DNA of 55,991 bases, from IMG/VR virus record IMGVR_UViG_3300037755_000409, positions 1 to 55,991 of that record; one strand, 5' to 3'. Of the stretch, positions 1 through 55,991 are shown piece by piece. A program made the translations under genes and the position numbers. How positions within the stretch are numbered: the stretch's first letter is position 1; each line of letters starts with the position of its first letter. The stretch is from a virus. Taxonomy: Duplodnaviria > Caudoviricetes. The notes below the pieces were generated by a model. That model had not been told where the DNA came from, made no database searches, and saw only the letters and a program-made list of their open reading frames with translations.

Positions 1-127
1 GTCGAGGACTGCAAGTCCTGACCGAGCACTGCAGACAGATCAAGCGCAGCCGCCTGCGCACGCTCGAATACAGGCCCAACAACATTTCCGAAAGTCAGAA
101 GATTGTTGGTGACTTTCTTGAGGATTT
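1..127. repeat. Terminal overlap copy 1 (identical to 55865-55991); circular contig
   Basis: 127-bp identity between the window ends, falling inside one continuous reading frame. Confidence 0.97.
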
Positions 128-455
128 CCTCGTCACCAGACGTCGTGGCCTCCTGGAGCGCGGAAGCCATCGCCTGCAGTTGCTTCGACGTAAAACCAGC
201 CGTACTGCCTGTCGTTCGCAACGTGGCCTCGACGGCCTTGACGGCCTGCTCTTGCACACCGAACGCGCGCACGGCGTCTTGCGCAAAGGACTTGAGCTGC
301 CCGACAGCAAACGCCGCGCCGATCGCGCCGCCGAGCGCCTTGGCCTTACTGGCAAGGTTGTCCATTGAGCGCCCGGCACGCTTCGTGTCCGAAGAAAACT
401 GGCCGGCATTCATGCCCAGGACGACACGAAGCGCGCCGATGATTGCACTAGCCAT
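1..455 (-). CDS. Tape measure protein, 5' part (continues across the origin into 55864-54427; ~630 aa total)
   Basis: ATG at 455 gives MASAIIGALRVVLGMNAGQF..., reading in frame into ...VLGQDLQSSTIQLGKALNDP; follows the tail chaperone. Confidence 0.9.
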   Translation of the reverse strand, partial: MASAIIGALRVVLGMNAGQFSSDTKRAGRSMDNLASKAKALGGAIGAAFAVGQLKSFAQDAVRAFGVQEQAVKAVEATLRTTGSTAGFTSKQLQAMASALQEATTSGDEEILKKVTNNLLTFGNVVGPVFERAQAAALDLSAVLGQDLQSS

Positions 456-5960: not shown

Positions 5961-6669
5961 ACGGCTTCAGCCATTCCGGCCGCGGATCGGCGCGCATGAT
6001 CAGATCGATGATTTCGAGATCCTGCACATCGTCGACGTCGAGCCCGGTAATCTTGTTCTCGATGATCGGGTGAATGCGATGCCCCATGAAATATGAGCGC
6101 CCACCATCCCATCCGCTGTGCCGGAACACCTCAAGATTGAAAGGCTTGTAAACCTTGGGAAACTCCGTGCGCCGCGCCTTCGAACGTCCGGCCGGCCACG
6201 TCATCGGCAGTAGCGGCTCGAGCCATCCCATTTCGCCGATCGTCTGCAGGCGCGCATCCGCCTCGCTGACGATGCGAACGGAATCGACGTGCGGCCTGGC
6301 CGCAAGCACGCATATCGCCTCTTCAACGCTTTCGATGCTACGGAATGGCGACGTCGGCTTGATCCATACCCAGATATCCGGCATCTCGCCGTTGCTGGCG
6401 ACGTAATCGGCGATAATATCCTCTTCCATCGCCGTGTCGGAACTGGCGTGCTCGCCGCGCTGATGCCACCAGATCATCGGCTCATACTCGGCAGCAAGGT
6501 CGACATACGCCTTTGAGTCGGTCGAGACCACAATGCGATCGATGTCGAGCTTTTTCGCGAAGTTCACCGCATGACCGATCAATGGCACGCCACCGGCCGG
6601 GCTGATGTTCTTGTCCGGCAAGCCCTTCGATCCGGCCCGCGCCGGAATCATCGCGAAAATTTTAGACAT
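5947..6669 (-). CDS. Acylneuraminate cytidylyltransferase (CMP-nonulosonate synthetase, NeuA-like)
   Basis: IPARAGSKGLPDKNI, VSTDS, PTSPFR, LDVDD motifs. Confidence 0.9.
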   Translation of the reverse strand: MSKIFAMIPARAGSKGLPDKNISPAGGVPLIGHAVNFAKKLDIDRIVVSTDSKAYVDLAAEYEPMIWWHQRGEHASSDTAMEEDIIADYVASNGEMPDIWVWIKPTSPFRSIESVEEAICVLAARPHVDSVRIVSEADARLQTIGEMGWLEPLLPMTWPAGRSKARRTEFPKVYKPFNLEVFRHSGWDGGRSYFMGHRIHPIIENKITGLDVDDVQDLEIIDLIMRADPRPEWLKPYVHA

Positions 6670-7165
6670 CGAACAGAGTCTCCACGATCACGTCGGCATT
6701 GATTTTGCATATTTCAGACCGCCACCAATCTGGCGGCTCAACAGTCAAATGAACATTTCTACCGTCAGGAAGTCTTTTGTGACGTGACGGAGCAGTCGCG
6801 ATTACAAAGAATACAAACTTTTTTGCGAACCCGATGACGTCAACGAGAAACGCTCCAACGTCACTCTTCGGAATATGCTCGGCGACGTCGGTGCATATTA
6901 CGCCGTCGAATTTCGTTGTCGGTTTAGCGGAATAAGGAATGTACCCAGGATCATAACAGGTCGGAAGAATGCCGCCCCACTGCTCGTGCTGTCGACGCTG
7001 AGTGTATTGAAAGCCCTTCCCGCTCCCGTAGTCCAATAAAGTGGCAGATTCAGTTCTCTCGATCAGACCGCGAATGCAATCAACGCTTCCGCCTGTAAAC
7101 TTGCCCCGGAACCGCTTAGGGTTCCGGTGCATAATTCTGTACTGGGTTATAAGATCGCGATTCAC
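6662..7165 (-). CDS. Class I SAM-dependent methyltransferase
   Basis: LLDYGSGKG, YDP, FDGVICTDVAEHIP. Confidence 0.88.
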   Translation of the reverse strand: MNRDLITQYRIMHRNPKRFRGKFTGGSVDCIRGLIERTESATLLDYGSGKGFQYTQRRQHEQWGGILPTCYDPGYIPYSAKPTTKFDGVICTDVAEHIPKSDVGAFLVDVIGFAKKFVFFVIATAPSRHKRLPDGRNVHLTVEPPDWWRSEICKINADVIVETLFDV

Positions 7166-34015: not shown

Positions 34016-35194
34016 ATGGCACGCGTCAAGCTCAAATACGTGACCAGCGACCGCGACCGGCACGGAAACGTGCGCTTCTACTTTCGCCGGCGCGGCATGG
34101 CTCGCAAATTCCGCCTGCCCGGCCTACCGGGATCTGAAGACTTCATGGCGGCCTATCGCGCCGCGCTCGCCGGCTCGCCTGCCCCTGCCACCGAAGACAC
34201 GCCGGCGCGACCGCCTGTCATCAAAGGCACGGACTCATTCGAATGGCTCTGCGATCGCTACCGGCGCAGCCCGGAATTCACGAACAATCTGACCGAGGTA
34301 ACCCAGACACGCCGCGCGCAGATGCTGACTTCGATCTGCGCCGAGCCGCTAAGCGACGCCAGGCCGGTGCCGATCGGTCGCCTGCCCTACGATCAGATCA
34401 CTGCGAAAGCCATCCGACGCCTGCGCGACCGCCGCGCGGATCGCCCGAACGGCGCGAACAACATGATGAAGGCGCTCAAGGTGCTGATGAAATGGGCCGT
34501 CGAAGCTGATTATCTCGACCACAACCCGGCCAAGGATGTGCCGCTCATCGAGGTGCACAGCGAGGGCTATCACACCTGGACGGTGGATGAGGTCCGTCAG
34601 TTCGAGGCCCGGCACCCAGTCGGGAGCAAGGCGCGGCTGGCGCTTGCGCTAATGCTCTACACCGGCCAGCGCCGCTCGGATATCATCCGGTTCGGACGTC
34701 AGCATGTTCGCGGCGATATCCTGACCTTCACGCAGGCCAAGAACAAGGCGCGCAAGCCGGTCACCCTGACGCTTAATATACTGCCGCCGCTGGCCAGGAT
34801 CATCGAGGCGACGCCGAGCAGCAATCTTACATTTCTGGAGACCGCGCACGGCCGCCCATTCACTGGCAACGGCATTGGAAACAAGTTCCGCGAATGGTGC
34901 GATCAGGCGGGTTTACCGCACTGCACGGCTCACGGATTACGTAAAGCTGGCGCAACGATCGCCGCCGAACGCGGTGCGACGGAAAAGCAACTCATGGCGA
35001 TTTTCGGCTGGTCGACACTTGCGCAGGTTCAGAATTATACGCGGCGCGCAAGCCAGGCGAAACTGGCCGCGGGCGCGATGCATTATCTCGACTTCGACGA
35101 GAACGAAACAGAGACAAATGTGTCCCACCGGAAAAGGCAGGTTGAGAGTGGTGGGACAATTAGCGCGAAAACCGCTTTAAAATCAGGTTCTTAA
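34016..35194 (+). CDS. int: Tyrosine integrase
   Basis: YTGQRRSD (R), QAKN (K), HGLRK (HxxR), FGW, NYT (Y). Confidence 0.96.
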   Translation: MARVKLKYVTSDRDRHGNVRFYFRRRGMARKFRLPGLPGSEDFMAAYRAALAGSPAPATEDTPARPPVIKGTDSFEWLCDRYRRSPEFTNNLTEVTQTRRAQMLTSICAEPLSDARPVPIGRLPYDQITAKAIRRLRDRRADRPNGANNMMKALKVLMKWAVEADYLDHNPAKDVPLIEVHSEGYHTWTVDEVRQFEARHPVGSKARLALALMLYTGQRRSDIIRFGRQHVRGDILTFTQAKNKARKPVTLTLNILPPLARIIEATPSSNLTFLETAHGRPFTGNGIGNKFREWCDQAGLPHCTAHGLRKAGATIAAERGATEKQLMAIFGWSTLAQVQNYTRRASQAKLAAGAMHYLDFDENETETNVSHRKRQVESGGTISAKTALKSGS

Positions 35195-35314: not shown

Positions 35315-35510
35315 TTTCAGCGTCAGATTTTTCCTGATTTTCTGCAATCTCAAGTAGAAATCGGAAAACCGGCCGATCTGACGCATTCGTTGCGCCGGCC
35401 ATGCGCTACCGGAACGCCGCGCGAACACGCCAGCCGCAACAGATCTCACAAAAAAATATCCACAAGCCCGTCGATGATGATTCCAAAGCGAAAAAGCACG
35501 ATCCGTGCGA

Positions 35511-35556
35511 TGCACAATTGCGTGTACGCAAAAAAACTAGTTGCACAATACGTACA
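35511..35556. promoter_or_regulatory. Operator-like sites upstream of the GT2 gene
   Basis: TGCACAATTGCGTGTA 35511-35526 and TGCACAATACGTACA 35542-35556. Confidence 0.5.
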
Positions 35557-35623
35557 ATTAATTTTACTAAAAATGCACATTTCACGGGATATCATCATGC
35601 TTCAAAATCATTCCGCATACACG

Positions 35624-36571
35624 ATGACGCGCATTTGCCTTGGGGTTTGCACACGTCAGCGTCCCATCCTGCTTTCGCAATGCCTGGACTCGATTCAGGA
35701 TCTCGACATTCCCGACCAATCCGGTCTGATGATCGTCATCGTCGACAATGACGACACGGCCAGCGCCCGCGGGCTCGTCGAAGGCTTTCAGCGAGAAAAT
35801 CCAAATCTTGCCGTTTTCTATCTTCACGAGCCGCGCCGGGGCATCGCACTTGCACGCAACGCCATCCTGCGATTTGCACAGCAGCACCTCAGCGACTGGA
35901 TCGTGATGCTCGACGACGATCAGCGCGTGCCCTCGTCCTGGCTACTCGATCTGTTCGCGGCGCAATTCAAGACCGGCGCGGAAGTCGTCAAGTCATCCGT
36001 GACCTATCACTATCCTGATCCGCTGCCGCGCTGGGCGTTCCCGAAAGGCAGGCCGCACAAATGGCAGCTCAATGCCGAGATGGCGGCAACCAATGGTGTG
36101 CTGTTTTCCGGCGCACTGATCGACCCGCACGATTTCGGTCTGCGGTTCCGTGAAGCCTACAATCTGAGCTGCGGCGAGGATCGCGATTTTTTCAAGAGTG
36201 CGAGCATGGCCGGCGCGCTGATCGTCCACACGCCTGATGCCGTCGCCTATGAGATGATGCCGCCCTCCAAGCTGACATTCACGACGCAGGTGCGCCGGCA
36301 GTTTCACGAAGAATGGGTGAACACGCAGCAGGACATGCGTTTTCATGGCGCGTCCAGAACGATCCTGCGCAAGAGCTGCAAGGCAGCGCAAATGATCCTG
36401 CATGGCGCTATCCTGACGCTGCTCTCGCCGCTCAGCGCACTGTTCAGCCCAAGGCGCGGCCGCAAGCAGCTGTTGAAGGGCGCAAAGCGGTTTGCCAAGG
36501 CGTTCGGACTGATTACCGGCCTCGTTTCCAGCGCAAGACCTGCGCCTTATCAGAACGTACACGGATATTAA
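35624..36571 (+). CDS. GT2-family glycosyltransferase (ExoM-like)
   Basis: CTRQRP..L..CL, IVIVDND, GIALARN, MLDDD, CGED. Confidence 0.9.
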   Translation: MTRICLGVCTRQRPILLSQCLDSIQDLDIPDQSGLMIVIVDNDDTASARGLVEGFQRENPNLAVFYLHEPRRGIALARNAILRFAQQHLSDWIVMLDDDQRVPSSWLLDLFAAQFKTGAEVVKSSVTYHYPDPLPRWAFPKGRPHKWQLNAEMAATNGVLFSGALIDPHDFGLRFREAYNLSCGEDRDFFKSASMAGALIVHTPDAVAYEMMPPSKLTFTTQVRRQFHEEWVNTQQDMRFHGASRTILRKSCKAAQMILHGAILTLLSPLSALFSPRRGRKQLLKGAKRFAKAFGLITGLVSSARPAPYQNVHGY

Positions 36572-37459: not shown

Positions 37460-37780
37460 ATGAAAACGATGCAAGACGTATTAAGCGACATGATCGCACG
37501 CGAACTGCTCAATAGCGGCAAGCTTGTGAATGGAGGGTGGGAAATTTTTGACCGTTTCATTCTGGATCCCACCGCACCGGCAATCCAGCGCGATGAGATG
37601 CGCAAGGCGTTTTTCGCCGGAGCGCAACACGTTTTCATGTGTCTCCACGCCGGTCTTGATCCGGATGAAGAGCCAACCGAAAACGACATGAAGCGTATGG
37701 ATCTGCTCGAGACCGAGCTGACCCAATTCGGGGAAAGCTTCGCTGCAGAAATTGCGGCGAAAGAATCCAAGAGTCACTGA
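37460..37780 (+). CDS. Hypothetical protein
   Basis: AAGGA RBS; EMRKAFFAGA. Confidence 0.75.
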   Translation: MKTMQDVLSDMIARELLNSGKLVNGGWEIFDRFILDPTAPAIQRDEMRKAFFAGAQHVFMCLHAGLDPDEEPTENDMKRMDLLETELTQFGESFAAEIAAKESKSH

Positions 37781-38304
37781 TGCGAAACTGCGGCGACTGC
37801 CAACTCTGCTGCCGCCTGTTGCCGGTCAAGTCGATCGGCAAGAAAGCGGGTACGCGCTGCATCCATCAGAAGCACGGCAAGGGATGCAAGATCTATGAGC
37901 GCCGGCCGAGCTGCTGCCGTCTGTGGTCGTGCGCCTGGCTGACAGGGAACGACACGACTGATCTGCGCCGTCCGGACCGCGCGCATTACGTCATCGACTG
38001 CATGCCGGAATTCATCAAGCTCAGCGACGACGCGACCGGCGAAATTCACAAAGTTCCCGTCGTGCAGATCTGGATCGATCCGCGCTATCCGAATGCGCAT
38101 GAGGATCCGGCATTGCGCCGTTTTCTGTTGCGGCGCGGTGCCGAAGGCGTTCTCGGCGTCATACGCTCAAGCGACGAAGACGGCTTTGTGATCTGCCCGC
38201 CGAATATGTCCGATGACGGACAATGGCATATCAAGGCGGGGCAATCCGAGGAAGCTCATTCGGTCGAGGAAATATTCGACGTACTGGAAAGGGGACACGT
38301 ATGA
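37780..38304 (+). CDS. YkgJ-like cysteine-cluster protein
   Basis: CGDCQLCC, C.H, C.IYERRP..C..W.C.W. Confidence 0.75.
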   Translation: MRNCGDCQLCCRLLPVKSIGKKAGTRCIHQKHGKGCKIYERRPSCCRLWSCAWLTGNDTTDLRRPDRAHYVIDCMPEFIKLSDDATGEIHKVPVVQIWIDPRYPNAHEDPALRRFLLRRGAEGVLGVIRSSDEDGFVICPPNMSDDGQWHIKAGQSEEAHSVEEIFDVLERGHV

Positions 38305-38588
38305 CACTGATCAAGGATCTCGGCGACGTCATCGCCAAAGAGACGAACACCAATCTTTGCGCGCACCATCGGATCACGGTCGCCCAGGCTATCGTGAAAT
38401 GGCTGACCGATTCCTTGTTTGCCGAGCATCGGGATCAGATCCTTATCGACATCGATATCATCTTGCTACGGATCGAAGGCAGCCGATCGAATGGAAGCGA
38501 CGCCGTGCTGGTTGAGCATGACAGCATGCTGCGAATGATTTCGTGCGTCCATGAGCTCATAGCGGCGAACCACAATGACGCGCACTGA
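38301..38588 (+). CDS. Hypothetical protein
   Basis: ATGA overlap with the upstream gene. Confidence 0.55.
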   Translation: MTLIKDLGDVIAKETNTNLCAHHRITVAQAIVKWLTDSLFAEHRDQILIDIDIILLRIEGSRSNGSDAVLVEHDSMLRMISCVHELIAANHNDAH

Positions 38589-38904
38589 TCCAGCCGGATT
38601 GCCTCACAGGCCGATCCTGAAACTGAAGCCCTCGCCGAGCTCGGAAAAAGAAAGTCGCCCTGCCTCGCCGGCGCTGCCGCTGACGAAACGTCAATGCGCG
38701 ATCATGAAGCTGGCAGCTGACGGCGTTCCGCAACGGATAATTGCCCAGCGGCTCGGCATATCGCACCGAACTGTCGAGATGCATGCGCGCCGCCTGCGCA
38801 AGCGGCTCGGCGCGACGACGATGGCGCAGGCCATCCTTATCGCCATCAGGCTCAAGCAAATCACCATCGAGGGATGCAATGCTCAAGGAAGTAAAATCGA
38901 TTGA
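38575..38904 (+). CDS. Stand-alone LuxR-type HTH regulator
   Basis: LTKRQ..IMKL.ADG.....IAQRLGISHRTVEMH......RLGA. Confidence 0.85.
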   Translation: MTRTDPAGLPHRPILKLKPSPSSEKESRPASPALPLTKRQCAIMKLAADGVPQRIIAQRLGISHRTVEMHARRLRKRLGATTMAQAILIAIRLKQITIEGCNAQGSKID

Positions 38905-39856
38905 GAAATCTGCCAAACTTGATCGCGCCGCCTGGCACAAGCCCCTGATCTCGATCGTCATCACGCATTTCAATTATGCGGACCATATCGAGGATGCGAT
39001 TCTGTCGCTACTCGATCAGACGTATCAAAATTGGGAATGCGTCATTGTCGACGATGCGTCGAGCTATGAGCAGCATGCGCGGCTCGTCGCGATCCTCGAC
39101 AGCATCAACAGCGCAAAAATCCGACTTGTCGAGCATGCAGAGAACCGTGGACAGATCCCGGCATTCTTCACCGGCCTCGACGCCACCAGCGGCGAATTCG
39201 TCAGCATGCTCGATCCCGACGATCGCTATGCGAAGACTTTTCTTAATGAAGCGCTTGGCGCACATCTGAACAACACGGTGATGTGTCCGATCGTGTCGAC
39301 GGATCAGTACCTCGTAAAAAACGACAGCGTGATAGCAATGGTGAACTCGCACCATTTGTTGGAACAATCCCGATGGATAGGCGGGCGCGCCGTCATCGAT
39401 GGCGAAACAGCCAGCTCGCTTTTTTACACCCCATCTGATCGGCCAGGCTGGCATTGGACAAGCACATCATCGCTGATGATGAGACGTTCAGCCCTGCAGT
39501 ATCTGAAACCAAACAAAGAGCTGATCACAAAGAACTCGGTTGATGCCTATGTCGCTCAGGGATTGCATCGACTTGGCGGCACGATCTTTCTGGCCAGGCC
39601 ACTTGTTTACCGCACCCTCCACGACTGCAATGAGTATATTTCCGACACGCTCTTTTCCTCATTGCAGCATCAGGCGAGACCCACCGCCGTCAGCGCAGAG
39701 CGTGAGCTCCTGCTCGATGCCATCGATGCCATGAAGCATAACGGCGCGCCCATCCCCTCATGCGCGCTGAAGCCTAAGAAGCCCGGCCTGCTGGCGAAGT
39801 GGCGGCGCTCATTCAGCAAGCGTTGGCAAAAGCTCTTCGGGAAAAGCGCGCGATGA
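38879..39856 (+). CDS. GT2-family glycosyltransferase
   Basis: ISIVITHFNY, SLLDQTY.NWECVIVDDAS, NRGQ, LDPDD. Confidence 0.9.
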   Translation: MLKEVKSIEKSAKLDRAAWHKPLISIVITHFNYADHIEDAILSLLDQTYQNWECVIVDDASSYEQHARLVAILDSINSAKIRLVEHAENRGQIPAFFTGLDATSGEFVSMLDPDDRYAKTFLNEALGAHLNNTVMCPIVSTDQYLVKNDSVIAMVNSHHLLEQSRWIGGRAVIDGETASSLFYTPSDRPGWHWTSTSSLMMRRSALQYLKPNKELITKNSVDAYVAQGLHRLGGTIFLARPLVYRTLHDCNEYISDTLFSSLQHQARPTAVSAERELLLDAIDAMKHNGAPIPSCALKPKKPGLLAKWRRSFSKRWQKLFGKSAR

Positions 39857-41520
39857 CCGAGAAAATGCTGCGCGGCTCCAAGATCCGCATTTTCCCGACA
39901 AAGCGCCAGACACGACTTCTGGACCTATGGCGCAAGCGAACGATATCGCTCTGGAACCTGTTGCTCTCGCTCGAACAGGCGGCATATGGCGGCGAGAACA
40001 CGCGCTCGAAACTCGGCTGGCGTTCGATATGGGCGCGCGTGCTGGAAGAAAACCACGCCAAGACCTATGCCGCATGGGAAAACGGCAAGACCATCCGCGT
40101 CGGGAAAAACAAGGGCAAGGTCATCCCGCCATGCGACGGGCCAGCGCCAGAACCGGTCAATCCGGAAGTCCTAGCGAAAATCAATCGCTCGAGCAGTGAG
40201 ATGAACCCGGAAACCGGCGAACGCCTGCCGGCGAAGCTTTTCATGTGGGATACCGAGCTGCTTGCCATCATGGCGCGGCTGAAACAGGTGCCGCGCACTG
40301 AGTGGATTGCCGACCTGCCGTCCCATGCCGCACAGCGCGTCGTGAAAGATCTGATATCTGCCCTGCAGGCCATGCTCCGTGAGCGGCGTAAGCGCGCCAG
40401 CGGTGCAGGCGGGCGCGATACAGGCTTTCCGAAATTCAAGAAGAACCGCTACGGCGCAGGCAGCGTCTACTTCGCCAACACGCAGCTCGAATTCGATTTC
40501 GAAAATCAGCGCGTGCGATTTCCAAATGGCTGCGGCTGGATGCGATGCGAGTTGCCACGGCACTTGCGCAGTCAGGCGCTCGAAGACCGGTCGAAGATCA
40601 AGCTGATGGGCGGCCGCGTCTGGCGTCAAGGCGAGCGCACATATCTGTCCTGCCAGTGGGAAGTGGAAAGACCTGCGGCACTGAAGCCGACAGGACGCAC
40701 GGCCGGCGTCAAGATCGGCGCGAAGGTGTTGCTCACCACCTATGACGATCGCGGGCAGACACGCGAATATACGATGCCCGAGCCCGACAAGAAGCTGGAA
40801 ACACTACACCGCGTTGCGGCGAAGAGGCTGTCGCGCTCGATAGAGGCGCAGAAGAAGCGGGAGAAGAGGATCAAAGCAAACGGCTACAGCCAGCGTCGCG
40901 AAAAGCGCCTCGTCGCAACAGGCAAGAAGGACAGGCCGTTAAGGCTTCGTCGCACGCCAGGGTTCTACGCATCTGCCGCGCGGCTTGCTGGCTATGAGGC
41001 CATCGAGCGCGATCGGCGCGATGGGTTTCTGCACGAACTCACGACAAGCCTTGTCCGCCGGTTCGATGCCATCGCCGTCCAGCGCTTCGAAGTTGCGCGG
41101 TTGATGGAAAAGGAATCGACAAAGAAGAAACGCCGCCTGGCGCGAATCGACAATGCGGTTGAGCGCAATGCGACTGCGGAAGATATAAAGAAGCAACGGC
41201 CGATGAAGCCGGTCCGCAAGCTGATGCGCCGCGTCGCCATGGCTCGCTGTGGCCAGCTGCTGGAATACAAGTTCAAGGATCTGCGCGGGCCGGACGCCTT
41301 TCAGAAAATCGATCCGCATGATGTGAATGCCACGGCGTGCTCTGGCTGCGGAAGCATTCACCCCAAGTGGAAAGAAGCAAGCGGCATCATGCGCTGTCAT
41401 GAAGTGCTCGCCAGTGGCGAGATTTGCGGAACGGCATTGCCGCGCAACCGCAATGCCGCGCGATTGACGAAGCGGGAACTGGACGTCAGGCGCAAGGCCA
41501 AAATCAAGGAGGCAGTCTGA
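39853..41520 (+). CDS. TnpB/Cas12f-like type V effector with inactivated RuvC (555 aa)
   Basis: KIRIFPT..Q N-terminus, GFPKFKK, RuvC-I GVKIG, RuvC-II IAVQRF, Zn finger CSGC...C...C, RuvC-III RNRNAA; adjacent to cas1, cas2 and the array. Confidence 0.88.
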   Translation: MTEKMLRGSKIRIFPTKRQTRLLDLWRKRTISLWNLLLSLEQAAYGGENTRSKLGWRSIWARVLEENHAKTYAAWENGKTIRVGKNKGKVIPPCDGPAPEPVNPEVLAKINRSSSEMNPETGERLPAKLFMWDTELLAIMARLKQVPRTEWIADLPSHAAQRVVKDLISALQAMLRERRKRASGAGGRDTGFPKFKKNRYGAGSVYFANTQLEFDFENQRVRFPNGCGWMRCELPRHLRSQALEDRSKIKLMGGRVWRQGERTYLSCQWEVERPAALKPTGRTAGVKIGAKVLLTTYDDRGQTREYTMPEPDKKLETLHRVAAKRLSRSIEAQKKREKRIKANGYSQRREKRLVATGKKDRPLRLRRTPGFYASAARLAGYEAIERDRRDGFLHELTTSLVRRFDAIAVQRFEVARLMEKESTKKKRRLARIDNAVERNATAEDIKKQRPMKPVRKLMRRVAMARCGQLLEYKFKDLRGPDAFQKIDPHDVNATACSGCGSIHPKWKEASGIMRCHEVLASGEICGTALPRNRNAARLTKRELDVRRKAKIKEAV

Positions 41521-42377
41521 TGTTTCGCGGCCGCCTTGGTCTGGAGAAGATTCGCATCCCTTATAATTCGCGGCACGCGCTTGTGTGGCTGGATCGCGGA
41601 CGCCTGGATGTCGCCGATGGCTGCCTGCGCTTTGTCACGGCTGGTGGCACGCTGGAGGCTGGTGAGTACGAAATTCCGCACGAGGCAATCAGCATGGTGC
41701 TGCTCGGGCCGGGATCGAGCGTCACCCATGACGCGTTGCGGATATTGGCCAGCCACGGGACAGCGCTGGCTGCGATCGGCGAAGGCGGTGTCCGGCTCTA
41801 TACGGCGCCACCGATGATGACGGCGAGCTCAGCGCTCGCGCGACGCCAGGCATCGGCCTGGGCGTCACCCAAAGAACGAATCGCAGTTGCCCGGAAGATG
41901 TATGCGCTACGCCTTGGCGAGATCCTGCCGCACCGGGATATAGAAGTCCTGCGCGGCATCGAGGGCGCGCGCGTCAAGAAGGCGTATTGGGAAAAAGCTG
42001 AGGAATTCGGAATTGACTGGCGCGGCCGTCGATACGATCGTGCCGATCCACAATCGGCCGACGCTCCAAACCAGGCGATTAATCATGCCTCAAGCGCCGT
42101 GCGGTCCGCCGCGGCAATTGCCGTGATGGCGACCGCGACAATCCCGCAGCTGGGCTTTGTCCATGAAGATAGTTCCCAAGCATGGATACTCGATGTTGCC
42201 GATCTTTATCGGGATGAGGTCACGCTGAACATCGCGTTCGGCGCGGTGAAGGATGCCGACAAAAATCTCGTTACGCTCGAACGCGCTGTTCGACTTCGCG
42301 CTGCGACTGTCTTCGATGAGGAAAATGTGATTCCATCCATGATTGAACGAATCCGCACACTATTGAGCGAGCCATGA
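41520..42377 (+). CDS. cas1: Cas1, type I-E-like
   Basis: LLGPGSSVTHDA, GEGGVRLY, LRGIEGARV (E), NQAIN, LGFVH (H), LDVADLY (D); catalytic set intact. Confidence 0.96.
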   Translation: MFRGRLGLEKIRIPYNSRHALVWLDRGRLDVADGCLRFVTAGGTLEAGEYEIPHEAISMVLLGPGSSVTHDALRILASHGTALAAIGEGGVRLYTAPPMMTASSALARRQASAWASPKERIAVARKMYALRLGEILPHRDIEVLRGIEGARVKKAYWEKAEEFGIDWRGRRYDRADPQSADAPNQAINHASSAVRSAAAIAVMATATIPQLGFVHEDSSQAWILDVADLYRDEVTLNIAFGAVKDADKNLVTLERAVRLRAATVFDEENVIPSMIERIRTLLSEP

Positions 42378-42676
42378 GCCATGCCCTGACCGTGATTATC
42401 ACCCGCGATGTGGAGCCACGCTATCGAGGGTTGCTCAGATCAGCAATGCTTGAGGTCGCGGCAGGCGTCTACATCAGCGCAAGCTTTAATCGCGAAGCAC
42501 GTGATAGGCTTTGGGAAATAGTATCGCGCTGGCATAAAGCATTGAATCGCGGATCTGTGATTATGATCTGGCGTGATCGCAGTTCTGTTGCCGACATAGG
42601 GTTAAAAACACTTGGAAAAACAACAAGAGAATATGCAGAAACCGACGGATTACTATTGACGCGTCTGCGCACATAG
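42374..42676 (+). CDS. cas2: Cas2, type I-E-like
   Basis: TRDVEPRYRGLL...MLEVAAGVY, RDRLW, DGLLL. Confidence 0.93.
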   Translation: MSHALTVIITRDVEPRYRGLLRSAMLEVAAGVYISASFNREARDRLWEIVSRWHKALNRGSVIMIWRDRSSVADIGLKTLGKTTREYAETDGLLLTRLRT

Positions 42677-42684
42677 AATAATCA

Positions 42685-42900
42685 TTCGCTTACCGCTTCG
42701 GCGGTCTAGGGCCGTAGTCCGGCACCGAAGTTAAGCCCGCTGTAAGATCTTCTGGATCGTATGGCTGCCCTTGTAAGACCTGCCACACTTCCAGGCAGGC
42801 AGGGGCATCGGAGCCCCCTCTGTCGGCGGAACCTCATTCGTGAGGGTCTACGAGACACGGGGCGTTGAAGGGGGAATCCTTGCGTGTTCTGAACGACCGA
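42685..42900 (+). ncRNA. Putative tracrRNA (omegaRNA-like scaffold)
   Basis: Anti-repeat 42877-42898 pairs 20/22 with repeat nt 1-22; GTCCG 42717-21 pairs with repeat CGGAC; two UUCG-capped hairpins and nested stems; ends approximate. Confidence 0.8.
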
Positions 42901-42942
42901 TCTTTGAAAATCTGGAGATGCGACAGCGACTTAGCTGCTAGA
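42899..42942 (+). promoter_or_regulatory. Short CRISPR leader
   Basis: Lies between the anti-repeat and repeat 1; TCTTTGAAAATC motif and TAGA junction recall I-E leaders. Confidence 0.55.
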
Positions 42943-43702
42943 GGTCGCTCTGAGTGCGCGGGGACGGACGGTCAGACCGGCCCCGCTCCCACCACAGCTC
43001 ATTGGTCGCTCTGAGTGCGCGGGGACGGACGTCTTCCGTGGTGGGATCGATTGCTCGGAACCTAGGTCGCTCTGAGTGCGCGGGGACGGACGTCAAAAGT
43101 TCCATCACATCAATGATCTGTCCGGGGTCGCTCTGAGTGCGCGGGGACGGACGGTATTAGAGGCAATTATAGATGAATCAGGAAATGGTCGCTCTGAGTG
43201 CGCGGGGACGGACGCTGTCACAACTGCTGACTCCTCCCCGCATACCCGGTCGCTCTGAGTGCGCGGGGACGGACGCTGCTCATTCAGAACCTCCTCCCAT
43301 GTCGGGTAGGTCGCTCTGAGTGCGCGGGGACGGACGTTCCGGGAGGGTCCTTGGCAAATCTCCAACTGGGGTCGCTCTGAGTGCGCGGGGACGGACGGCT
43401 GTAGCGTAATCGTAGTGCTAGGCATCACTCGGTCGCTCTGAGTGCGCGGGGACGGACGATGAACTGCCGAAAGAGCTTGAGATTGCGCGGCGGTCGCTCT
43501 GAGTGCGCGGGGACGGACGTAGGCCACGTCTCCCTCTACGCGGCTCATCCGAGGTCGCTCTGAGTGCGCGGGGACGGACGTTTAACGGACATTATTTGCA
43601 CATAGGTTTCAGTGGTCGCTCTGAGTGCGCGGGGACGGACGTTACGGCAACATCAATCGGCCCGCTCACACTTTGGTCGCTCTGAGTGCGCGGGGACGGA
43701 CG
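42943..43702 (+). CRISPR. CRISPR array: 13 identical 28-bp repeats GGTCGCTCTGAGTGCGCGGGGACGGACG and 12 spacers of 33 bp
   Basis: Exact 61-bp period from 42943 to 43675; unique spacers. Confidence 0.99.
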
Positions 43703-43715
43703 GCAGGGGAAAGAA

Positions 43716-43737
43716 CACGACGCCGAAGGCGCTCGTG
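43716..43737. terminator. Hairpin between the array and the convergent lysis genes
   Basis: CACGACGCC-GAA-GGCGCTCGTG; no clear U-tract. Confidence 0.35.
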
Positions 43738-43781
43738 CAGTCTTGATGCGCAGGGTGGACGAATAACGGGCAATGCGCAGG

Positions 43782-44129
43782 CTATTGCAGCTTGCACAGC
43801 GCATCCCAGGCAGCGTTGTGCTCGCGGATCTTTTTCACCAGTTCCGGCCGATCCAGTTTCTGAGAATACAGGATAGGCTCGAAAGCTTCGCAGGCCGTGT
43901 CGACAACAGATTGTTGTGTTGGTTGCTCACAGAGAATCCCCTTGCTGACGCCGAACACCTGCAGATCAAATATACAAACCCGCGACTCAGCCGCATCAGT
44001 CGATGTTGTATGGATCATCAGGATCAGGCTCGCTATCAGCAGCACGCTTGCGCGCCGCGCGCGCTTCCTGAATGCGATCATTTGAAATCTGTAACCCTTC
44101 AAGGATTGCCTTCGCCTCGCCAGCCGCAA
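43782..44129 (-). CDS. Putative o-spanin-like protein (start uncertain)
   Basis: Overlaps the Rz-like gene; hydrophobic segment, Cys residues, DTAC...HNAAW..LC. Confidence 0.55.
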   Translation of the reverse strand: MRLARRRQSLKGYRFQMIAFRKRARRASVLLIASLILMIHTTSTDAAESRVCIFDLQVFGVSKGILCEQPTQQSVVDTACEAFEPILYSQKLDRPELVKKIREHNAAWDALCKLQ

Positions 44130-44208
44130 TCAGCTCACGCTCGCGTAGAAACGTCACGACGATCGTGACGGCCTGCAGCGTGAGCGCGATCAGCTTTAGC
44201 CAGGTCAT
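43996..44208 (-). CDS. Putative i-spanin (Rz-like)
   Basis: N-terminal TM, helical body, DPDDPY end. Confidence 0.65.
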   Translation of the reverse strand: MTWLKLIALTLQAVTIVVTFLRERELIAAGEAKAILEGLQISNDRIQEARAARKRAADSEPDPDDPYNID

Positions 44209-44378
44209 GCAGAGCGATCACGGTTCCAGACCCACCACCAAACAAACGCGCCAATCCCGAGCACGCCACTGATTACGCCCTGATAGAGCTCACCATCCGC
44301 AACGCTTTCGCCGAACAGATAACCGCCGATGGCATAAAGGACGATCCGGACCAACTGCTGTATGCTGTCCCAAGTCAT
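44205..44378 (-). CDS. Putative holin (57 aa)
   Basis: MTWDSIQQLVRIVLYAIGGYL...VISGVLGIGAFVWWWVW; two TM segments; AAGGAG RBS. Confidence 0.75.
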   Translation of the reverse strand: MTWDSIQQLVRIVLYAIGGYLFGESVADGELYQGVISGVLGIGAFVWWWVWNRDRSA

Positions 44379-44393
44379 GATGACTCCTTTGGT

Positions 44394-45101
44394 TTAAAGC
44401 TGCGCACACTGAACGTGCATCCAGTCGTAATTTGCGACTCGCCCCAAGCTTACCCAGCCCTCAGCTTCCCAGATTTCCCAGAACGGCACGGCGTCAGGCT
44501 GACCAAGCCGCGCCTGGTCGCGCCCCCACTTGAGCTGATTGCGCTGATCGTCAAAGTCGATTGCAATGCCCCAGGAATGCGTCGACCAGGTCGAGCCGCC
44601 GCGCTTCTTGCGAGGCGCGCTAAGGCATCCGCTGAAAATATCGAGGCCGAGATCCGCGCGCTGCTTTTCGTCGAACGTTTCTGCGATGCGTTTGAAGCAG
44701 CGCGCCGCGCTGGCGTGACACTTTTTATGAATTGAAAAGCGCGTGATCTGCTCATCGAGATCCCAGGCCAGTCGCATCGGATAGGGAAGGTCGAGCGACT
44801 TCAGGTGCTTGCCCATTGCGCCGTAGAATGCAGGCACTGCGGATTCGTGCGGCCATGGGCCATCTTTTGGATAAAGCGGCTGAACCGGCTCGGCCTGCCG
44901 ATCCTCGATGACGCCATCCGGCCACAAGATGTCGTCGACATCATTCGAGCCCGCTGTGAGCTTGTGCCAGTCCTGCGCTTCGTGAATCGCGGCCCGCGTG
45001 CGGTTGCCGAGGATGCCGTCAGCCGGGCCCGGATCGAAACCGAGCTCGGCGAGGCGCAATTGAACTTTGTGAGTCCAGGTCGTCACATTTGCTATCCCCA
45101 A
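44394..45101 (-). CDS. Endolysin: PG-binding domain + M15 peptidase
   Basis: VQ.RL..LGFDPGPADG..G.RT..AI; STHSWGIAIDFD; DWMHVQ. Confidence 0.92.
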   Translation of the reverse strand: MGIANVTTWTHKVQLRLAELGFDPGPADGILGNRTRAAIHEAQDWHKLTAGSNDVDDILWPDGVIEDRQAEPVQPLYPKDGPWPHESAVPAFYGAMGKHLKSLDLPYPMRLAWDLDEQITRFSIHKKCHASAARCFKRIAETFDEKQRADLGLDIFSGCLSAPRKKRGGSTWSTHSWGIAIDFDDQRNQLKWGRDQARLGQPDAVPFWEIWEAEGWVSLGRVANYDWMHVQCAQL

Positions 45102-54426: not shown

Positions 54427-55991
54427 CTAGGCGGCTCTTACAATGAGCTGCGCGCCGTCTGCCGTCGCATCGTTGATCCGATCGATCAGGCCGCGCACCT
54501 GGTCGCGGCTGTAGGTTTGACCGTGCAGATTGATAGTCGTCATCTGTTGCGGCGCGGCTGGCTGGCTGGCCGCTGGAGCTGCACCGGCAGGGGCGCCGCC
54601 TCCACCGCCGCCCTTGTTCGTGCTTCTGATCGCGGCAACCTGCGCAAGCCCTGCAGCGCCCACAGCTGCGGCGGCAGCGAAGTTGAACGGCGGCGGATAA
54701 GCAGCCAACGCTTTGGTGACGCCTTCGGCTGTGTTGATGATGGCCTGTGCGATAGCAAATGCCTTGCTTTCGCCAAACACTTGCGAGAGCGAGCCGGCAA
54801 TATCGGACGCCATGCCAAGGTACGCGCCCGCGGAAACGAGAGTCGCTCTTTGCATTGCCGAGCCGAACTGCTCCGCGGAAATCTTGCTTTGGTCAAGCGC
54901 TGCCTGCAGCGCCTCTTGCTGCGATAACATTATCTCGTGCGGCGAACGGAGCGCCTCCGCCAAATGCAAGCCCGTATTTCCGAGTTGCTCGTACTCCTGC
55001 ATGAGTGCACGGAGGGCCGCCTTAGCTTCAGCAGCCTGACGCTTGGACTCCGTACCCAAATCGATGACAGGCTTGATCATGCCGGTCTCGATAGTCGTCT
55101 CCCACCCCTTCAGAAGTAGCGCACCCTCAAGCTCCGTCTTGCGCGCTTTTAACTCGGTCATCCGTCCCAACAGGCCGTCCATCTCTTTATTCACACGCTG
55201 AAGACGAAGCGACTTGAACATACCATCGCCCGCGGCGATTTCCTGCTGTGTCTGAATGACTTCGTTTAAGCTTCTATTTACTTCATCCAGCTCCTTATTA
55301 ACGCTATTGAATTCATGCGTCAGACTTGCTTGGGACCGATCCTCCAACGCAGACATTGCATCCGTGAGCGCTATAACCCCGGCCGTCAGACTGGCAACCG
55401 CCAAGACCGCCAGCGATAGCGGCCCGGCCATCGTTCCGATCACGGCAACAAACACGCCAACGCCGGCCGCCACTGCCGCGAGCGCAACCGTCACGCCACC
55501 GAAAACGACAATGCTGGTTCGCATCTCCGGAGAAAGTGCGCTGAACTCTTCGGACAGAGACTTTATTGCCTTCGCGGCAGGTACGATGACCGGCGTGATT
55601 GCTTCGCCGATCGCCTCCATCGTATCGCCCCAGGCGTTGTTCATTTGATCAAGCGCGCCCTGCGTCGTGTCCGCCATAGCCTCAGCGGCCTCGCCGTAGA
55701 AATGCTCGATCTCCTGCAGGATGACGCCCTGCGCTTCCATCACCTTGCCGGACTCAACCAGCGTTCTGATTTGCTGCTTTTGCTGTTCAGTGAACGCGAT
55801 GCCGACTCGTGACAGCGCCGTGATCCCCTTGATCGGATCGTTGAGCGCCTTGCCGAGCTGGATCGTCGAGGACTGCAAGTCCTGACCGAGCACTGCAGAC
55901 AGATCAAGCGCAGCCGCCTGCGCACGCTCGAATACAGGCCCAACAACATTTCCGAAAGTCAGAAGATTGTTGGTGACTTTCTTGAGGATTT
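54427..55991 (-). CDS. Tape measure protein, 3' part
   Basis: Ala/Gly-rich helical ORF open to the window end, joining 1-455 through the overlap. Confidence 0.9.
   Translation of the reverse strand, partial: ILKKVTNNLLTFGNVVGPVFERAQAAALDLSAVLGQDLQSSTIQLGKALNDPIKGITALSRVGIAFTEQQKQQIRTLVESGKVMEAQGVILQEIEHFYGEAAEAMADTTQGALDQMNNAWGDTMEAIGEAITPVIVPAAKAIKSLSEEFSALSPEMRTSIVVFGGVTVALAAVAAGVGVFVAVIGTMAGPLSLAVLAVASLTAGVIALTDAMSALEDRSQASLTHEFNSVNKELDEVNRSLNEVIQTQQEIAAGDGMFKSLRLQRVNKEMDGLLGRMTELKARKTELEGALLLKGWETTIETGMIKPVIDLGTESKRQAAEAKAALRALMQEYEQLGNTGLHLAEALRSPHEIMLSQQEALQAALDQSKISAEQFGSAMQRATLVSAGAYLGMASDIAGSLSQVFGESKAFAIAQAIINTAEGVTKALAAYPPPFNFAAAAAVGAAGLAQVAAIRSTNKGGGGGGAPAGAAPAASQPAAPQQMTTINLHGQTYSRDQVRGLIDRINDATADGAQLIVRAA
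55865..55991. repeat. Terminal overlap copy 2
   Basis: Identical to 1-127. Confidence 0.97.

Follow-up and report, generated by a model that had tools for sequence, protein, structure and literature searches.

We describe a CRISPR locus in the genome of a tailed phage known from IMG/VR record IMGVR_UViG_3300037755_000409. The whole of that record, 55,991 bp, was analysed and is referred to below as the window, and all coordinates are positions within it. On the + strand, from 39853 to 43702, the genes for a TnpB-like effector, Cas1 and Cas2 are followed by 266 nt of non-coding DNA and a repeat array. In our judgement it is probable, if only slightly so, that this locus is a phage-borne, adaptive type V system that acts by binding DNA without cutting it and is directed against competing elements during lysogeny. 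The reading draws on the replaced catalytic residues of the effector, on covariation within the non-coding RNA and between that RNA and the repeats, and on the recurrence of the arrangement in related phages. A preliminary description of this DNA had already proposed a 3.85-kb locus of effector, cas1, cas2, structured RNA, leader and 13 repeats, and the genes and the exact repeats were confirmed here.

Ancestry of the effector and its RuvC sites

The effector gene (39853..41520, + strand) encodes 555 amino acids from its ATG, or 573 if an alternative GTG at 39799 is used. NCBIfam holds no model specific to this family; the generic guided_TnpB model matched best, at 83.9 bits, which is under its cut-off of 100. 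By single sequence as well as by family profile, the closest solved relatives of the effector were ISDra2-type TnpBs. When compared with solved chains, the family profile scored 113 bits with ISDra2 TnpB (113-147 bits across TnpB-type chains), 76 bits with Cas12n (9j09) and 68-69 bits with TranC. Scores were lower for Cas12p (39 bits), for Cas12f (about 31 bits, the match being confined to the C-terminal zinc-finger region) and for Cas12m (15 bits, E 0.06). An AlphaFold2 model of the effector, built from 60 family sequences, had a predicted local distance difference test score (pLDDT) of 91.5. Searched with Foldseek, the model matched ISDra2 and ISFba1 TnpB best, with template modelling scores (TM-scores) of 0.73-0.77 of the target, while Cas12m2 structures reached 0.38-0.48 and Cas12m 8pm4 reached 0.41. 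Because of these profile, solved-relative and Foldseek matches, we conclude that the effector is a TnpB core with about 150-190 extra residues.

To place the effector in a family, proteins and genomes were searched at several scales. A word-indexed search of 5.8 billion proteins returned 89 relatives beyond the window's own protein, all of them metagenomic; several reside on contigs of about 52-57 kb, and the source annotation, where any existed, was 'transposase'. Exhaustive search of 1.84 billion representatives gave 37 clusters at E <= 1e-30, and the nearest ESM Atlas cluster was labelled 'mobile element protein' and was 75% viral. No family member was present among GenBank phages and plasmids, in which all matches had less than 27% identity, and 185,579 prokaryotic species-representative genomes contained no close relative, the best match being 33% identical over a fragment. 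Related loci were gathered from IMG/VR and from Joint Genome Institute (JGI) metagenome scans, and three of the relatives reside on phage records that are 99-100% complete. Genomic context was counted in 17 distinct loci (duplicates taken once) with at least about 400 nt downstream of the effector or cas2. The gene order, which the preliminary description had proposed to seek in relatives, recurs among them, and both the scaffold RNA region and an array of 61-nt period were present in 17/17. The family is phage-restricted, with effector, RNA and array conserved together. By sequence, by fold and by the array linkage of all these loci, a single effector of TnpB/RuvC fold stands beside a CRISPR array, as expected of type V.

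In an alignment of the effector with ISDra2 TnpB, whose catalytic residues we take to be D191, E278 and D361, Lys occupies the site of the RuvC-I Asp and Gln that of the RuvC-II Glu. Residues were then counted in an alignment of 60 family members. The RuvC-I column contained Lys in 59/60 and Arg in the remaining one; the RuvC-II column contained Gln in 43, Glu in 7, Asp in 5, His in 4 and Pro in 1. At the RuvC-III Asp column, which is the second Asp of the outgroup motif DRDxNAA, we found Asn (28), Arg (12), Thr (8), Gln (8) and His (4), and thus an acidic residue in 0/60. The four zinc-finger cysteines (CxxC...C...C) are intact in the effector, and each is conserved in 59/60. Outgroup proteins were drawn from the exhaustive search described above; about 12 of the 20 aligned outgroup TnpBs carry GxD, xxE and DRDxNAA and the remainder are substituted, and one outgroup row (P0111), being K-type, was included in the family count. 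On these alignments, the canonical RuvC triad is replaced across the family. The preliminary description had called the effector nuclease-dead, and the alignment with ISDra2 TnpB, together with the D/E/D outgroups, bears this out in the sense that the canonical triad has been lost.

A quick maximum-likelihood tree was calculated from 37 rows, after 5 of 42 rows had been dropped as fragmentary or odd. All 23 K-type rows were placed together beyond a single branch of 1.17 changes per site, with a Shimodaira-Hasegawa-like approximate likelihood-ratio (SH-aLRT) support of 100. That all K-type proteins lie past one long branch fits a single loss of the triad. In this tree and in the profile and structural comparisons, the family appears as a separate clade rooted among ordinary TnpBs, and not inside Cas12m, Cas12k or Cas12f, in agreement with the independent origin from TnpB that had been suggested beforehand.

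Further features of the family proteins were recorded. PF10905 (DUF2695) was detected in 11 of the 90 listed family proteins (P0016, P0033, P0037, P0044, P0050, P0054, P0055, P0058, P0060, P0065 and P0073), each of which is 60-190 residues longer. In locus L005, about 500 nt of extra sequence (about 6306-6823) separates the positions that match residues 101 and 128 of the query effector, which puts the insertion in the N-terminal (recognition) part. The PADLOC profile PDLC01039, 'Csx1 (found elsewhere)', matched 29/60 family members with a best E of 1.3e-22; this profile may hold a TnpB-like segment.

Guide RNA, repeat array and adaptation genes

Between cas2 (or the effector) and the array, 12 aligned loci share dozens of invariant columns, which delineate a structured RNA of about 220 nt. 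In the window, conservation and covariation place this scaffold, which resembles a trans-activating CRISPR RNA (tracrRNA) or a TnpB omega RNA, at 42690..42910 (+), with RNA ends that we infer. Its parts are a hairpin at 42692-42705, stems at 42739-42765 and 42766-42807, and a pairing of CCC (42736-38) with GGG (42872-74). A 22-nt anti-repeat at 42877-42898 (+) pairs with positions 1-22 of the repeat. In loci without cas1 and cas2 (L008, L047), the scaffold lies directly 3' of the effector gene.

Using RNAalifold, 52 pairs were predicted, with compensatory changes in 29. The helices of the scaffold, comprising 32 pairs, were 91.8% paired across the alignment, compared with 37-52% when the partner was slid by 1-3 columns; both sides had changed in 18 pairs, and the observed values were reached by none of 500 shuffles. 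Similar findings were obtained for the helix between anti-repeat and repeat (20 pairs), which was 89.5% paired, compared with 28-55% when slid, and had changes on both sides in 12 pairs, values equalled by 0/500 shuffles. This pairing is specific to RNA of the + strand, because many of the pairs are G:U. Judged from these alignments, the scaffold RNA is under structural selection. Since the anti-repeat covaries with the repeat, the data argue that the array serves the TnpB-like effector and not only a host Cascade. The RNA resembles what would be expected of a TnpB omega RNA that had been split into tracrRNA and repeat, and the tracrRNA proposed in the preliminary description thus finds support in conservation and covariation. 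A search of Rfam with positions 39000-44500 gave no match up to E 1.

A promoter-like site, TTGACG-18 nt-AATCAT, is located at 42656..42685 (+) inside the 3' end of cas2, where it is placed to drive the non-coding RNA. The consensus scan by itself was not significant, with two sites compared with 2.2 expected; the TTGAC box is at least 90% conserved among the aligned loci that reach this site. Downstream of the anti-repeat, a leader-proximal segment (42899..42942, +), presumed to be the integration leader, carries a conserved TCTTTG and a ..TAG....TAGA junction at repeat 1. TCTTTG (42902-42907, about 40 nt 5' of repeat 1) is invariant in 12/12 loci and the TAG....TAGA junction is largely conserved. 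These elements could belong to an integration leader, perhaps with a site of the integration host factor (IHF) type, or could mark the 3' end of the scaffold RNA.

The array itself (42943..43702, +) consists of 13 exact copies of the 28-nt repeat GGTCGCTCTGAGTGCGCGGGGACGGACG and 12 spacers, each unique and each 33 nt long, with a period of 61 nt. Related arrays in which the repeat could be delimited keep this design, with 28-nt repeats and spacers that are nearly all 33 nt long. In total, 147 unique spacers were collected from 15 arrays of 4-26 spacers; their GC content of 56.7% is near that of the phage. Arrays of close relatives have some spacers in common and others not (the near-identical arrays of L042, L044 and L045 and of L007 and L038; L044 with L005), and this partial sharing among close relatives implies that the arrays turn over.

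The composition of the 147 spacers was biased at the 5' end, with T 59, G 43, C 27 and A 18 at position 1 and C 58, T 55, G 18 and A 16 at position 2, while the last three positions were evenly composed. The bias may be a trace of selection linked to a protospacer-adjacent motif (PAM), or may mean that the repeat boundary was set one or two bases early; the offset used for L008 was wrong. Of 11 sequencing runs that were found, no RNA run was listed as containing the locus. Among the contigs of four DNA runs, short ones from two (runs X1 and X3) were found to join two array repeats by a different spacer of about 30 nt. These contigs matched at 43094-43247, 43459-43673 and 42974-43688, with about 30 nt matched on each side; as a weak hint, they may represent array variants or relatives with the same repeat, from the same or other samples.

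The effector gene is joined to cas1 by TGATG (41518-22), preceded by AAGGAGG, and cas1 to cas2 by ATGA (42374-77), overlaps of start and stop codons that the preliminary description had pointed out and that were read directly; another ATGA, at 39853-56, overlaps the effector start with the stop of an upstream glycosyltransferase gene and was read in the same way. The cas1 gene (41520..42377, +) encodes a type I-E protein, which scored 296.9 bits with TIGR03638 cas1_ECOLI (cut-off 215.6) and 460 bits with the PADLOC Cas1e profile. It aligns over its full length with E. coli Cas1 structures (145 bits), with conservation of the residues at the GIEG, GFVH and D..AD motifs, which we take to be the catalytic positions. 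The cas2 gene (42374..42676, +) is likewise of type I-E, with 81.1 bits for TIGR01873 Cas2e (cut-off 33.15), 79.4 bits for Pfam Cas_Cas2CT1978 and 119.6 bits for PADLOC Cas2e. The type I-E identity of the pair, asserted earlier, is therefore upheld by scores above both TIGR cut-offs.

Although Cas1e and Cas2e exceeded curated cut-offs, the Cascade and Cas3 of a type I-E system were not found. Six-frame searches of the entire window for the cas3 core, Cas7e (two models), Cas6e, Cas4 and TniQ were negative, while control genomes were matched; the two Cas7e models and the Cas6e model each matched 1/14 control genomes (Thermus thermophilus), so the sensitivity of these may be limited. Cas7e and cas3 were also not found in the three related phage records that are 99-100% complete. 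For Cse1, Cse2 and Cas5e, no annotated open reading frame (ORF) of the window matched in general scans, and no model search was aimed at them. These results are in line with the earlier statement that no cas3, Cascade, cas6, cas4 or Tn7 genes were recognised.

The related loci differed in their adaptation genes. Full-length cas1 and cas2 were present in 6/17 (L003, L004, L005, L007, L037 and L038), cas1 was truncated in one (L039), and another (L006) retained a 20-residue cas1 remnant and a partial cas2. In four loci, cas2 was found without cas1 (L042, L044, L045 and L054), and five had neither gene (L008, L047, L049, L059 and L066). Intact cas1-cas2 thus occurs in 6 loci and a decayed version in another 6, while 5 have none; the adaptation module is a genuine yet unstable part of the system. 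In the deep-branching L059 (33% identity, array at about 2050-2375), the repeats have a strong C-rich/G-rich palindromic core of the kind typical of type I-E repeats. This suggests an origin of the arrays in I-E systems and a later co-evolution with the anti-repeat, the window clade having lost the palindromic hairpin.

Proposed mode of action and its alternatives

In the mechanism that we propose, scaffold and precursor CRISPR RNA (pre-crRNA) would be transcribed from the + strand, starting at the promoter inside cas2. The resulting crRNAs would pair with the tracrRNA-like scaffold and guide the effector; bearing on this indirectly is the covariation of the repeat with an anti-repeat that is part of the effector-linked scaffold. 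With RuvC dead, the crRNAs would be matured by an RNase of the host, probably by RNase III, for which the anti-repeat:repeat duplex of about 22 bp would be the substrate. The guide would be located 3' of the repeat, which is also its place in TnpB and Cas12. The effector complex would then bind PAM-adjacent matching DNA without cutting it, so that transcription or replication is blocked. The phage Cas1-Cas2 would add 33-nt spacers; where these genes have been lost, acquisition may be carried out in trans by an I-E module of the host. The targets would be competing phages or other mobile elements, such as plasmids, met during lysogeny. The system would work for the prophage; the locus sits with the integrase gene and conversion-type glycosyltransferase genes, opposite to the late genes. 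Binding-only interference has been demonstrated for Cas12c and Cas12m (subtypes V-C and V-M) and predicted for V-O and V-P (Makarova 2025, section 9).

A broader scenario, which we regard as possible but short of probable, is that temperate phages of Proteobacteria possess a fully autonomous, adaptive, non-cutting and so far uncharacterised CRISPR system. It would have arisen by a virus-specific domestication of TnpB, with one death of the nuclease at the base of the clade, a split of the omega RNA into tracrRNA and crRNA, and the acquisition from hosts of an I-E array and then of I-E integrase genes, and the prophage would use it to silence competing phages or plasmids, or host genes. Since no DNA breaks would be made, an SOS-inducible lysogen would be spared the risk of its own induction.

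Several observations weigh against an adaptive, binding-only system. An acidic residue is present three positions after the RuvC-II site in 54/60 family members, and rearranged RuvC sites can remain active, as stated in a survey of TnpB proteins (PNAS 2023 survey); because of these two points, we infer the full loss of nuclease activity and do not read it from the alignment directly. The RuvC pocket might instead be rearranged and not dead, the effector cutting target DNA (perhaps by nicking) or pre-crRNA by means of non-canonical residues. Consistent with this, Glu or Asp occurs at RuvC-II in 12/60 and at the first position of the DRD motif in 13/60, and the presence of Lys or Arg at RuvC-I in 60/60 suggests a function. 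The PNAS 2023 survey also rates many TnpB groups with replaced catalytic residues as probably active, and terms the RuvC-I of V-U24 'noncanonical' rather than inactive. However, a positively charged Lys stands where the first metal-binding Asp would be, the RuvC-III column is never acidic, RuvC-II is free to vary among Q, E, D, H and P as it would be without catalytic constraint, and no alternative acidic column is invariant. We consider a rearranged and active site to be unlikely, while ranking it first among the alternatives.

No target of the spacers was identified in the collections searched. The 12 window spacers gave only chance matches of 12-17 nt and repeat matches with the masked window and all loci; a self-targeting array was thereby rejected, no window spacer matching the phage's own genome. 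Across all 147 spacers, no protospacer was found outside arrays in the window and the fetched loci. The arrays of the window, L044 and L004 had no credible protospacer among GenBank phages, the only matches overlapping repeats at E 0.01 or worse. The window array also had no protospacer in plasmids and gave only repeat-to-repeat matches with five related phage records. In exact 24-nt scans of IMG/VR, one window spacer gave no match and one L004 spacer matched its own contig only.

The absence of matches to the window array in GenBank phages and plasmids would also be compatible with an RNA-guided regulator resembling TldR, whose guides repress host or phage genes and so reshape the lysogen. 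Prophage-borne, nuclease-dead, fliC-associated TldR does so in published accounts, and the present locus lies among genes of lysogenic-conversion type (two glycosyltransferases and the integrase), with a gene for a GerE helix-turn-helix (HTH) protein upstream. Nevertheless, those accounts describe TldRs with one fixed guide and no array, whereas the arrays here are large and varied, their spacers are shared only between close relatives, their content turns over and an integrase pair (Cas1-Cas2) is present; moreover, 0/12 window spacers match the genome of the phage itself. A regulatory role of this kind seems to us somewhat less likely again than a rearranged nuclease.

The cutting step might be supplied in trans, with the dead effector as a targeting module for host Cas3 or for another host or phage enzyme. 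Pairing of Cas12m with Cas3 has been proposed for another non-cutting Cas12, and the I-E adaptation module and repeats make hosts with I-E systems, and hence Cas3, plausible. This is improbable in our view, given that cas3 was found neither in the window nor in the three complete relatives and that no nuclease gene is conserved beside the locus, where the flanking genes are those for HTH proteins, glycosyltransferases and lysis.

The RNA and the adaptation genes also supply points against the proposed system. The energy of the anti-repeat duplex, -28.2 kcal/mol, is at about the 5th percentile of the window background and unremarkable for a GC-rich genome; as the energy alone is ordinary, support for the anti-repeat pairing rests on covariation. 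Furthermore, because cas1-cas2 are decayed or absent in 11/17 loci of the family, many of its members may not merit the term 'adaptive'. Array, RNA or both could act together with a host I-E system, either because host Cas6e and Cascade load the phage array, as happens with mini-arrays borne by viruses, or because the phage RNA and dead effector sequester host crRNAs as an anti-CRISPR. The palindromic repeats of L059, which resemble I-E repeats, and the 61-nt unit kept in all arrays are compatible with such interplay. Derailment of host CRISPR has been proposed for a Cas9 variant from a phage, in which a dead RuvC domain is combined with a matching tracrRNA, and phage arrays of the Cas12r type have been proposed to use host I-E adaptation (bioRxiv 10.64898/2026.04.20.719267). 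This alternative is about as improbable as a nuclease in trans: the repeat of the window clade folds weakly on itself (-7.5 kcal/mol) and covaries with the phage's own anti-repeat, effector, scaffold RNA and array are inherited together in every locus counted, and six relatives and the window have intact cas1-cas2 of their own.

Finally, an RNA-guided binder that selects the sites at which the phage tyrosine integrase acts, or at which a different recombination step takes place, is very improbable: although the PNAS 2023 survey reports at least 3 independent links of fully inactivated TnpBs with phage-type tyrosine recombinases, and an integrase homolog lies about 1-6 kb 5' of the effector in the window, L001/2, L046, L039/40, L005/43, L045 and L054, neither the distance nor the genes in between are constant, identity among the integrases is only 27-90% and they belong to an ordinary lysogeny module, homing would need neither large, fast-changing arrays nor an adaptation module, and no spacer matches near the ends of the fetched loci.

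Phage setting and relation to known systems

In IMG/VR the record is assigned to the class with direct terminal repeats, and the 127 bases at the window start are identical to the 127 bases at its end. Such identity would be expected if assembly had closed a genome that is circular or circularly permuted. The tape-measure gene (54427-55989, - strand) runs past the right contig end and an open frame resumes at 3-455 (-), in keeping with a circular assembly in which the 127-bp terminal repeat forms the closure. The complete circle assumed in the preliminary description is thus backed by the terminal repeats and identical ends, but not by CheckV, which estimated completeness at 74% despite the repeats. 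PHROG profiles identified a large terminase, portal, major head protein, tape measure, tail fibre, primase, Dda-like helicase and tyrosine integrase in the window, and Pfam an S24 (LexA/CI-like) peptidase protein resembling a repressor, an endolysin and two family-2 glycosyltransferases. The large terminase subunit (TerL) was 64.7% identical to that of Pseudomonas phage PAJU2, its top match, and the next-best matches were from phages of Klebsiella, Rhizobium/Sinorhizobium, Ralstonia and Burkholderia; these similarities are the sole hint of the host. No tRNA genes were detected in the window. Given this gene set and the terminase similarity, the phage is temperate and siphovirus-like, and its host is probably a proteobacterium.

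The locus occupies the integrase/glycosyltransferase region, and the structural and lysis genes are encoded on the other strand. Upstream of it on the + strand are the tyrosine integrase gene (34016-35194, PHROG) and a first family-2 glycosyltransferase gene (35390-36571, Pfam), followed by an ORF for a Cys-rich protein of 174 residues without Pfam or PADLOC match (37780-38304). This Cys-rich ORF also precedes the locus in L001/L002 (83% identity) and in L006 (52%). A LuxR/GerE-type HTH gene (38575..38904, Pfam GerE 53.3 bits), a possible accessory or regulator, and a second family-2 glycosyltransferase gene (38918..39856, Pfam Glycos_transf_2 76.4 bits), whose stop overlaps the effector start, complete the block. 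A GerE-type or homologous HTH ORF lies immediately 5' of the effector in L001/L002, L003 and L050, whereas in the window the glycosyltransferase gene intervenes; in the upstream ORFs of 7 further loci, no Pfam family was recognised, save for a weak glycosyltransferase match in one. The association of the GerE HTH with the effector is therefore partial, extending to 4 distinct loci including the window.

Homologs of the glycosyltransferase at 38918-39856 were found in just 2 related loci (L003, L063), neither adjoining the effector. This gene is probably a lysogenic-conversion gene that shares the transcription unit of the effector, and not a CRISPR component. Both glycosyltransferase genes adjoin the integrase and CRISPR locus and probably have a role in surface modification, that is, in lysogenic conversion. 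Their position beside the integrase gene and the CRISPR locus suggests that the entire + strand block is expressed in the lysogen. In related loci, integrase and glycosyltransferase genes are likewise found upstream, and small holin-like ORFs and the endolysin gene downstream on the other strand.

With regard to known systems, the locus would act like the binding-only Cas12m and Cas12c and like TldR, a phage-carried dead TnpB, while being a member of none of these. By sequence and fold it is closest to ISDra2-type TnpB, with which it shares the zinc finger, a remnant xRxxNAA that aligns with the outgroup DRDxNAA, and a guide RNA scaffold encoded downstream of the gene. Unlike ISDra2-type TnpB, the effector has about 150-190 additional residues, no canonical triad and no transposon context, and the guide is split into scaffold and CRISPR array, with an adaptation module.

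Membership of V-M was rejected on a family-profile score of 15 bits (E 0.06), compared with 113 for ISDra2 TnpB, and TM-scores of 0.38-0.48. In Cas12m, RuvC residues are retained that serve to process pre-crRNA, and the enzyme is not known to use a tracrRNA. In published descriptions, V-M is also a small Cas12 (about 550-610 residues) on mobile elements (plasmids and some prophages), and interferes by DNA binding and transcription block, which for the window effector would follow from the lost triad. The same descriptions report V-M loci without adaptation genes, whereas in the window family the triad is gone and a tracr-like RNA and I-E cas1-cas2 are present. TldRs are nuclease-dead TnpB derivatives that repress by DNA binding, with one clade on temperate phages; they have a single fixed guide and partner genes (fliC, oppF, csrA) and neither array nor cas1/cas2. 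The window effector has the dead TnpB in common with them, but its 13 repeats, the arrays in 17/17 relatives and the presence of cas1-cas2 place it outside that group. A Cas12k system (V-K, CRISPR-associated transposon) was also rejected, since no TniQ was found in the six-frame window search and the context is that of a tailed phage.

The nearest analogue in life-style would be Cas12r of the Thermus 'Lalka' phages, likened here by description and not by sequence. In the report on these phages, a phage TnpB-like effector of about 560 residues lies beside an array of I-E-like 29-bp repeats with 32-33-bp spacers, with a proposed role in mobile-element conflicts and suggested I-E-type adaptation (bioRxiv 10.64898/2026.04.20.719267). 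In contrast to the window system, Cas12r is described there as needing an active RuvC (D238A abolishes interference) and as having no tracrRNA and no cas1/cas2 of its own.

The family is already catalogued as a Cas12, because profile PDLC01226 'Cas12_x2' of PADLOC-DB v2.0.0 (2023), listed as a CAS-V-F effector, matches the window effector from end to end with 701 bits (profile positions 10-545/549); it also matches 60/60 family members. A literature search found no text on this 'Cas12_x2' family. The V-F (Cas12f/Cas14) label itself was rejected: PADLOC Cas12f profiles scored 25-49 bits, compared with 701, and solved Cas12f about 31 bits over the zinc finger only. Cas12f enzymes are active nucleases, and an active nuclease is not what the effector sequence predicts, its canonical triad being replaced.

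Published surveys count about 50 independent TnpB-to-Cas12 events and at least 12 captures of adaptation modules. They list V-C, V-K and V-M as inactivated subtypes, with V-O and V-P predicted to be so and to block transcription, and they catalogue the altered-site variants V-U24, V-U43 and V-U44, of which V-U24 combines a noncanonical RuvC-I with an HTH protein. The present family may be one of these V-U variants; the HTH hint towards V-U24 is partial, and V-U24, V-O and V-P were compared by description only. Those descriptions, in the text available, do not mention phage residence or an I-E adaptation module, which are found in the window family. Our search of the literature, which lay outside the definitions of V-U6-45 and V-O/V-P, turned up no text on a TnpB-like effector that is phage-borne and RuvC-dead and is accompanied by its own I-E cas1-cas2. 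The novelty claimed in the preliminary description was nonetheless overstated, in view of the 'Cas12_x2' profile, the published TnpB-to-Cas12 events and adaptation captures, and the inactivated subtypes.

The system fits an already recognised trend, and systems of this general kind are known. Its significance is limited: no spacer target was found in the collections searched, and the family, which a profile database already contains, may correspond to a published but uncharacterised V-U, V-O or V-P group. A compact (about 450-570 residues), naturally nuclease-free, tracrRNA-guided predicted DNA binder could nevertheless serve as a scaffold for programmable repressors. If the proposed reading is true, temperate phages of about 56 kb, and not just huge phages and plasmids, own a complete adaptive, binding-only system, with integrase, leader, array, tracrRNA and effector. 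The family also offers a natural series for the origin of type V from TnpB. Its deep branches have short effectors, I-E-like palindromic repeats and no cas1-cas2, while in the derived branches the effectors are longer, the repeats have diverged in covariation with the anti-repeat, and I-E cas1-cas2 genes are present, a module that is decaying in several lineages. If this is correct, living lineages record how a class 2 effector gained, and then lost, class 1 adaptation machinery.

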